64,000 bases of DNA from Escherichia coli. Its GTDB lineage: Bacteria; Pseudomonadota; Gammaproteobacteria; Enterobacterales; Enterobacteriaceae. The position numbers and the translations under genes were made by a program. How positions within the stretch are numbered: position 1 is the first letter of the stretch; every line of letters begins with the position of its first letter. The stretch lies in assembly GCF_003334305.1 (NCBI RefSeq), contig NZ_QOWS01000005.1. One strand, given 5' to 3'. The notes under the pieces were generated by a model. The model ran no database searches and had not been told where the DNA came from. It was given only the letters and a program-made list of their open reading frames with translations. Positions 5,960 to 6,087 of the stretch are shown here, piece by piece.

Positions 5960-6087
5960 AACATTCACGGTAGATATAAAAACGTCACAATACACCGCGC
6001 TGTTTTTACTTACTATCAATCGTTTCTAAACAAGTTTTCATCAGGTATTCTACTGATGACTTGTTATGGAAGTGTTAAGGTAAAAAG

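Follow-up and report, generated by a model that had tools for sequence, protein, structure and literature searches.

The closest described relative of the element considered here is the rstA promoter of Salmonella, one of the PhoP-activated promoters grouped as architecture III (Zwir et al. 2012, PMC3335776). PhoP-P gives a DNase I footprint of 20 nt on this promoter, over a directly oriented PhoP box (TCGTTTAGAAAAGATTTAT) that is followed, after 23 nt, by the -10 hexamer TATGTT. The -35 hexamer is TGGAAG, the spacer between the two hexamers is 17 nt, and transcription starts 5 nt after the -10, giving a 21-nt leader (PMC3335776). For transcription in vitro, Salmonella rstA requires PhoP-P as well as the RNA polymerase alpha-CTD. 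Activity was lost when the 17-mer was inverted, and a PhoP box was equally effective at 12 or 23 nt from the -10 (PMC3335776). Salmonella ompX is the other member of this class (PMC3335776). Like rstA, it has one box, in direct orientation and separated from the -10 by 21-23 nt; the gene itself is unrelated, and its leader is long (237 nt). PhoP control of both ompX and rstA has been reported as lineage-specific, present in Salmonella and absent in Yersinia (PMC2650801).

Promoters of architecture I (class II-like), which include those of mgtA, phoP, slyB and yrbL and that of mgrR in the DNA analyzed here, have the same direct (T/G)GTTTA-N5-(T/G)GTTTA repeat in direct orientation, and share with rstA a PhoP-P-dependent activation at low Mg2+. 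They differ in the position of the box: it overlaps the -35 and leaves 11-12 nt to the -10, whereas the rstA box is one helical turn further upstream. They also differ in their requirements: mgtA does not need the alpha-CTD, whereas Salmonella rstA does (PMC3335776).

PhoP control of rstAB has been observed in E. coli and in Shigella. Deleting phoP in E. coli eliminated effects that require transcription of rstAB, an operon described as positively controlled by PhoQ-PhoP (PMC13425233). Expression of rstAB was up in E. coli mgrB mutants, which have hyperactive PhoQP, and dependence on phoP was validated for selected genes (PMC10746255). The response of a PrstA reporter was graded with optogenetically set levels of PhoP (PMC13215669). 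In Shigella flexneri, deletion of phoPQ left rstA at 0.07 of wild type, and a fragment from upstream of rstAB was shifted by PhoP-P in an EMSA (PMC5775216). The text of the Shigella paper counts rstAB among the operons with a predicted PhoP box, and its Table 5 has no row for rstA; a box of the E. coli type, with two mismatches, would satisfy the criterion stated in that paper.

We analyzed a stretch of 64,000 nucleotides from E. coli (the window), and we conclude, with a probability of roughly 0.93, that the E. coli rstAB promoter has its PhoP box at positions 6016..6032, in the form of a direct repeat on the minus strand. The repeat is within the intergenic region between ydgC and rstA (5960..6087, 128 nt) of the E. 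coli chromosome. Read along the minus strand, the gene order is folM, ydgC (on the opposite strand), rstA, rstB and tus. The response regulator gene rstA (5240..5959, minus strand, 239 aa) is co-transcribed with the sensor kinase gene rstB downstream of it (3935..5236, minus strand), and the rstA-rstB operon has been described (PMC13425233). The divergent neighbor of rstA is ydgC (6088..6423, plus strand), a member of the GlpM family. A 701-nt query covering the locus was 100% identical to several E. coli chromosomes, and 5,423 of 5,426 complete genomes contained it.

The core of the box, TGTTTAGAAACGATTGA, reads TGTTTA-GAAAC-GATTGA from 6032 to 6016 on the minus strand. It consists of two (T/G)GTTTA-like hexamers that form a direct repeat with a 5-nt separation (GAAAC) and thus an 11-bp periodicity, in direct orientation relative to rstA. 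Half-site 1, TGTTTA (6027..6032), matches (T/G)GTTTA perfectly and is invariant in the aligned Escherichia sequences. Half-site 2, GATTGA (6016..6021), has two mismatches to KGTTTA (4 of 6 positions match) and is the most conserved part of the box. The preliminary description had placed a direct repeat in the rstA promoter at 6016-6033, about 55 bp upstream of the gene. That repeat is real, and the interval given for it has one extra T, at 6033. The distance was also correct, with 56 nt between the end of the box and the rstA start codon annotated in RefSeq (ATG, 5959). An Rfam scan found no RNA family at the box.

Downstream of the box is a poor core promoter. A weak -35-like hexamer, TAGTAA (6010..6015, minus strand; 3 of 6 matches to consensus), abuts the box and is 17 nt from a -10 hexamer, TATTGT (5987..5992, minus strand; 4 of 6 matches). 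The gap between the box and the -10 is exactly 23 nt (6015..5993). A scan with the sigma-70 consensus over 5800-6300 on both strands found no promoter; the absence of a consensus sigma-70 promoter is expected at an activator-dependent promoter, and for such a promoter the scan is uninformative. The arrangement is that of architecture III: a single box, oriented like rstA, whose distance to the -10 of a poor core promoter falls in the range of 21-23 nt. By analogy with the mapped Salmonella start, transcription of rstA is predicted to begin at 5981 (minus strand), 5 nt after the -10, with a leader of 22 nt.

The E. coli promoter could be aligned without gaps, from the box to the ATG, with those of two Salmonella enterica loci that carry the exact published box TCGTTTAGAAAAGATTTAT. 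In this alignment the footprinted Salmonella 19-mer falls on window positions 6033..6015 (TTGTTTAGAAACGATTGAT), and 16 of its 19 positions are identical, as are 14 of the 17 positions of the core. The two promoters are alike in the orthologous position and direct orientation of the box, the 23 nt to the -10, the abutting weak -35, the 17-nt spacer and a leader of approximately 21-22 nt. They differ in that E. coli has T rather than C at the first position of the box, GATTGA rather than GATTTA as half-site 2, TATTGT rather than TATGTT as the -10, and TAGTAA rather than TGGAAG as the -35. The experiments on the alpha-CTD and on box orientation belong to the Salmonella promoter alone. The interpretation as a PhoP box that had been offered from the sequence is supported by this gap-free alignment, by the rank of the site in the matrix scan described below, and by its conserved register. 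It had been suggested that the site be compared with the published footprint on rstA: the footprinted box aligns with the window site and not elsewhere, the footprint being that of the Salmonella orthologue. A full-text literature search with the exact E. coli box, on both strands and with spacing variants, matched no paper. A PhoP footprint and S1 mapping have reportedly been obtained for E. coli rstA.

The number of matches to a bare consensus did not distinguish the rstA site from the rest of the window. Allowing up to two mismatches to KGTTTA-N5-KGTTTA, we found 21 matches in the window, compared to 17.8 ± 4.3 in shuffled sequences that preserved dinucleotide composition, that is, the frequency expected by chance. 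The best of these matches (44815..44831, plus strand, one mismatch, GGTTTACTGGCGGTTTT) is the terminator stem and T-run of MgrR. For both reasons we rejected consensus counting as evidence; on its own it is misleading in this window. Because the bare consensus performed at chance level, we built a weight matrix of 19 columns from 25 DNase-footprinted, activation-relevant PhoP boxes of Salmonella (Zwir et al. 2012, Table 1, PMC3335776), excluding the rstA box. With this matrix the E. coli rstA box scored 16.5 bits, within the range of the footprinted training boxes (9.4-21.9) and above the local background, and ranked first among the 127,964 positions of the window on both strands. Approximately 0.2 matches with this score are expected per window simulated with a first-order Markov model. 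The second-ranked position, at 13.9 bits, was the box in the mgrR promoter. Hence, a matrix made from footprinted sites recovered the two strongest known PhoP boxes of the window as its top two matches.

The site is conserved at the orthologous position in related species. We compared 80 fetched loci with RstA orthologues (76-97% identity), one per species of Enterobacteriaceae, together with the window (81 in total). In 44 of the 81 upstream regions (up to 130 nt from the start codon), the best matrix match was exactly in the 23-nt register. The sequence GGTGTAT(G/T)(T/G)T around the -10 is nearly invariant, and its GTGTAT anchor was found in 72 of the 81 regions. Mean information was 1.13 bits per column in half-site 1, 1.15 in the spacer, 1.60 in half-site 2, 1.43 in the -35 and 1.80 in the -10, compared to 0.87 between the -35 and the -10 and 0.62 in the upstream flank. 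Half-site 1 is (T/C)GTTTA in Salmonella, Citrobacter and several further genera, and half-site 2 is GATTAA or GATTTA in most other genera. The core of the box is identical to that of E. coli at 17 of 17 positions in E. albertii and at 14 in Salmonella, in which the intergenic region as a whole is 61-64% identical. Franconibacter has a different strong box, GGTTTA-TCATT-GGTTGA, at the same position, which is an argument that function, more than sequence, has been under selection.

Within E. coli, 5,419 of the 5,426 genomes have the 65-nt promoter segment at an identity of 95% or more. Of three variant records that we fetched, the one from strain Ec1117 is altered within the box, at a spacer position. 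In the clinical isolate EC9952 (NZ_CP104595.1, near 2317122), an element of the IS66 family is inserted between the -35-like hexamer and the -10, and separates the PhoP box of rstA from its core promoter.

Two other readings of the repeat would deprive PhoP of this site. The repeat could be a chance match, with PhoP acting on rstA from elsewhere or indirectly. The chance-level count of consensus matches is in keeping with this, as is the presence of another, weaker PhoP-like repeat between ydgC and rstA (6061..6079, plus strand, 10.8 bits). Against it, the rstA box is the top matrix match of the whole window, no other match in the ydgC–rstA intergenic region exceeds 11 bits, the site is orthologous to a Salmonella site that has been footprinted and tested by mutation, and the 23-nt register recurs in more than half of the upstream regions compared. 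By its position, orientation and conservation the rstA site is clearly non-random, and we regard a coincidental match as very unlikely. The second reading, that the repeat is the target of a different regulator of the OmpR/PhoB family (RstA itself, in autoregulation, or BasR/PmrA), starts from the fact that members of this family generally bind direct repeats with an 11-bp periodicity. In addition, GATTAAT, the form of half-site 2 in most genera, loosely resembles a PmrA half-site. Set against these points are the perfect PhoP hexamer in half-site 1, and the Salmonella orthologue, on which PhoP-P leaves a footprint and from which transcription proceeds in vitro with PhoP-P and RNA polymerase alone (PMC3335776). 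Autoregulation by RstA was rejected, as the intergenic region lacks an RstA box (TACATNTNGTTACA); the window has a single one, upstream of asr. We give a regulator other than PhoP just as little weight as a coincidence.

A further reading adds to activation of rstA by PhoP rather than competing with it: the box could be an operator that also, or mainly, serves ydgC, with PhoP on a putative -35 repressing or modulating that gene. Located 5-7 nt upstream of the box is a strongly conserved element, CAGCATAACGGAA (GTAGAATACCTGA in E. coli; window 6034-6060, minus strand), which is also found in the fetched loci L004 to L080, approximately 47-60 nt upstream of the -10. Its reverse complement holds a -10-like hexamer, TATGCT or TATTCT (6046..6051 on the plus strand in E. 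coli), that is correctly placed for ydgC. Judged by sequence, the element is probably the -10 region of a divergent ydgC promoter. The spacing would then put a putative -35, TTTCTA (6023..6028, plus strand), inside the PhoP box. Where an insertion replaced the rstA-proximal part of the region, in locus L027 of Klebsiella oxytoca, the element has remained with ydgC, and it is missing from four of the five loci that lack ydgC and in which folM abuts rstA. On the other side, the promoter scan was empty on both strands, the literature search found no link between ydgC and PhoP, and a reverse-oriented PhoP box near a -10 was inactive for activation in Salmonella constructs (PMC3335776). On balance we consider a role of the box as a ydgC operator improbable, and somewhat less so than the two readings above. 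There may be a parallel for such an arrangement. The divergently overlapping promoters of mgtA and treR are reportedly controlled by one PhoP box, and are similar to the present case in having a single box between divergent genes, with a possible overlap of the box with the -35 of the opposite promoter. They differ in that a response of ydgC to PhoP is a lead and not a finding.

Two additional features of the intergenic region were observed. Just upstream of the box, two perfectly matched 7-bp arms flank an 8-nt loop, TCATCAG-GTATTCTA-CTGATGA (6038..6059), and this inverted repeat encloses the putative ydgC -10 TATTCT. We rejected it as a regulatory palindrome: its center is conserved, and its arms are not conserved in E. 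albertii or Salmonella. The weaker PhoP-like repeat mentioned above, TGTTAT-GGAAG-TGTTAA, has a score near the background of the window. It is oriented with ydgC and ends 9 nt before the ydgC ATG, in the predicted leader and ribosome-binding region.

Returning to the repeat as a PhoP box of rstAB, comparison of the loci indicated that the box has been lost or has moved in the Klebsiella oxytoca group (four loci in our set), in Kluyvera (five loci) and in the Enterobacter clade. Members of the Klebsiella oxytoca group have 1-1.6 kb of inserted DNA between ydgC and rstA, and no in-register box was left in the four loci checked. The breakpoint of the insertion in L027 is directly after CAGCATAAC. 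The Kluyvera ascorbata promoter shows decay of the ancestral site, together with a 15-bit box at a distance of 51 nt from the -10. A group comprising Enterobacter, Lelliottia, Leclercia, Silvania and Huaxiibacter has a degenerate half-site 1, and scores in its 23-nt register are only 2-9 bits. The same genera have a box of approximately 10 bits, GATTAA-TGGAA-GGTTAA, exactly 12 nt from TATGTT, which is the spacing of architecture I (17 loci of this group, approximately 30 nt upstream of the -10). This turnover fits the lineage-specific PhoP control of rstA that has been reported (PMC2650801).

The arrangement in the Enterobacter clade could have come about by decay of half-site 1 and the appearance of a new half-site, GGTTAA, one helical turn downstream, so that the shared GATTAA would become the first half of the box. 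We suggest tentatively, and with considerable doubt, that the rstA box slid by one half-site in this clade, from architecture III to architecture I, and that in E. coli the box doubles as an operator for ydgC. If true, the promoter switched from the alpha-CTD-dependent architecture III to the class II-like architecture I.

The preliminary description had counted rstA, mgtS and mgrR as three PhoP-linked units, and all three are indeed in the window. mgrR and mgtS are convergent, and both are PhoQP-dependent (bioRxiv 10.1101/2021.06.30.450655). mgrR is on the plus strand (match to the Rfam family STnc560 at 44704..44917), with its terminator near 44838, and mgtS (45006..44911, minus strand) has 31 codons with its ATG at 45006. 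The STnc560 match extends past the MgrR terminator into the 3' end of the convergent mgtS. The mgrR box that ranked second in the matrix scan is CGTTTA-ACATT-CATTGA (44697..44713, plus strand, scored as the 19-mer 44696..44714), and is 12 nt from a -10-like TACTGT (44726..44731). The mgrR promoter (44686-44731, plus strand) has three half-sites in phase, AGTTTA-AGCTC-CGTTTA-ACATT-CATTGA, with AGTTTA upstream. For mgtS there is a weak box, AATTCA-GCCTT-CGTTTA (45107..45091, minus strand), that scores 6.5 bits, has only half-site 2 in good agreement, and is exactly 12 nt upstream of a good -10, TAATAT (45078..45073).

The window also contains a target of RstA. Upstream of asr (ATG at 16742, minus strand) is a consensus RstA box, TACATATCGTTACA, at 16859, and downstream of asr is the 27-codon ydgU/samT ORF (MVGRYRFEFILIILILCALIAARFYLS; region 16400-16860, minus strand). 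This operon, asr-ydgU/samT, is an RstA target that feeds back on RstB (PMC13425233).

Taken with the published work, these features suggest how the promoter would function in E. coli. At low Mg2+, at acid pH, or in the presence of cationic or antimicrobial peptides, PhoQ would phosphorylate PhoP, and a dimer of PhoP-P would bind TGTTTA-N5-GATTGA head-to-tail. The bound dimer would be two helical turns upstream of the weak -10 and would abut the poor -35. From there PhoP would be expected to recruit RNA polymerase through the alpha-CTD in an orientation-dependent manner, and transcription would probably start near 5981 and proceed through rstA and then rstB. For E. coli, the requirement for the alpha-CTD, the dependence on orientation and the start site are extrapolated from Salmonella.

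The element itself is already known, as the PhoP-activated promoter of architecture III, and it represents no new E. coli biology. What may be new is comparative: the box appears to have turned over and slid across Enterobacteriaceae, and it may overlap a ydgC promoter. RstB/RstA controls asr-samT, csgD, ompF and iron uptake. Since the PhoP box drives rstA-rstB, it is the cis element that couples PhoQ/PhoP to RstB/RstA, the junction at which a textbook two-component relay is wired together. Together with the PhoP box and rstAB, the window holds an operon targeted by RstA, which is the next step of the relay.
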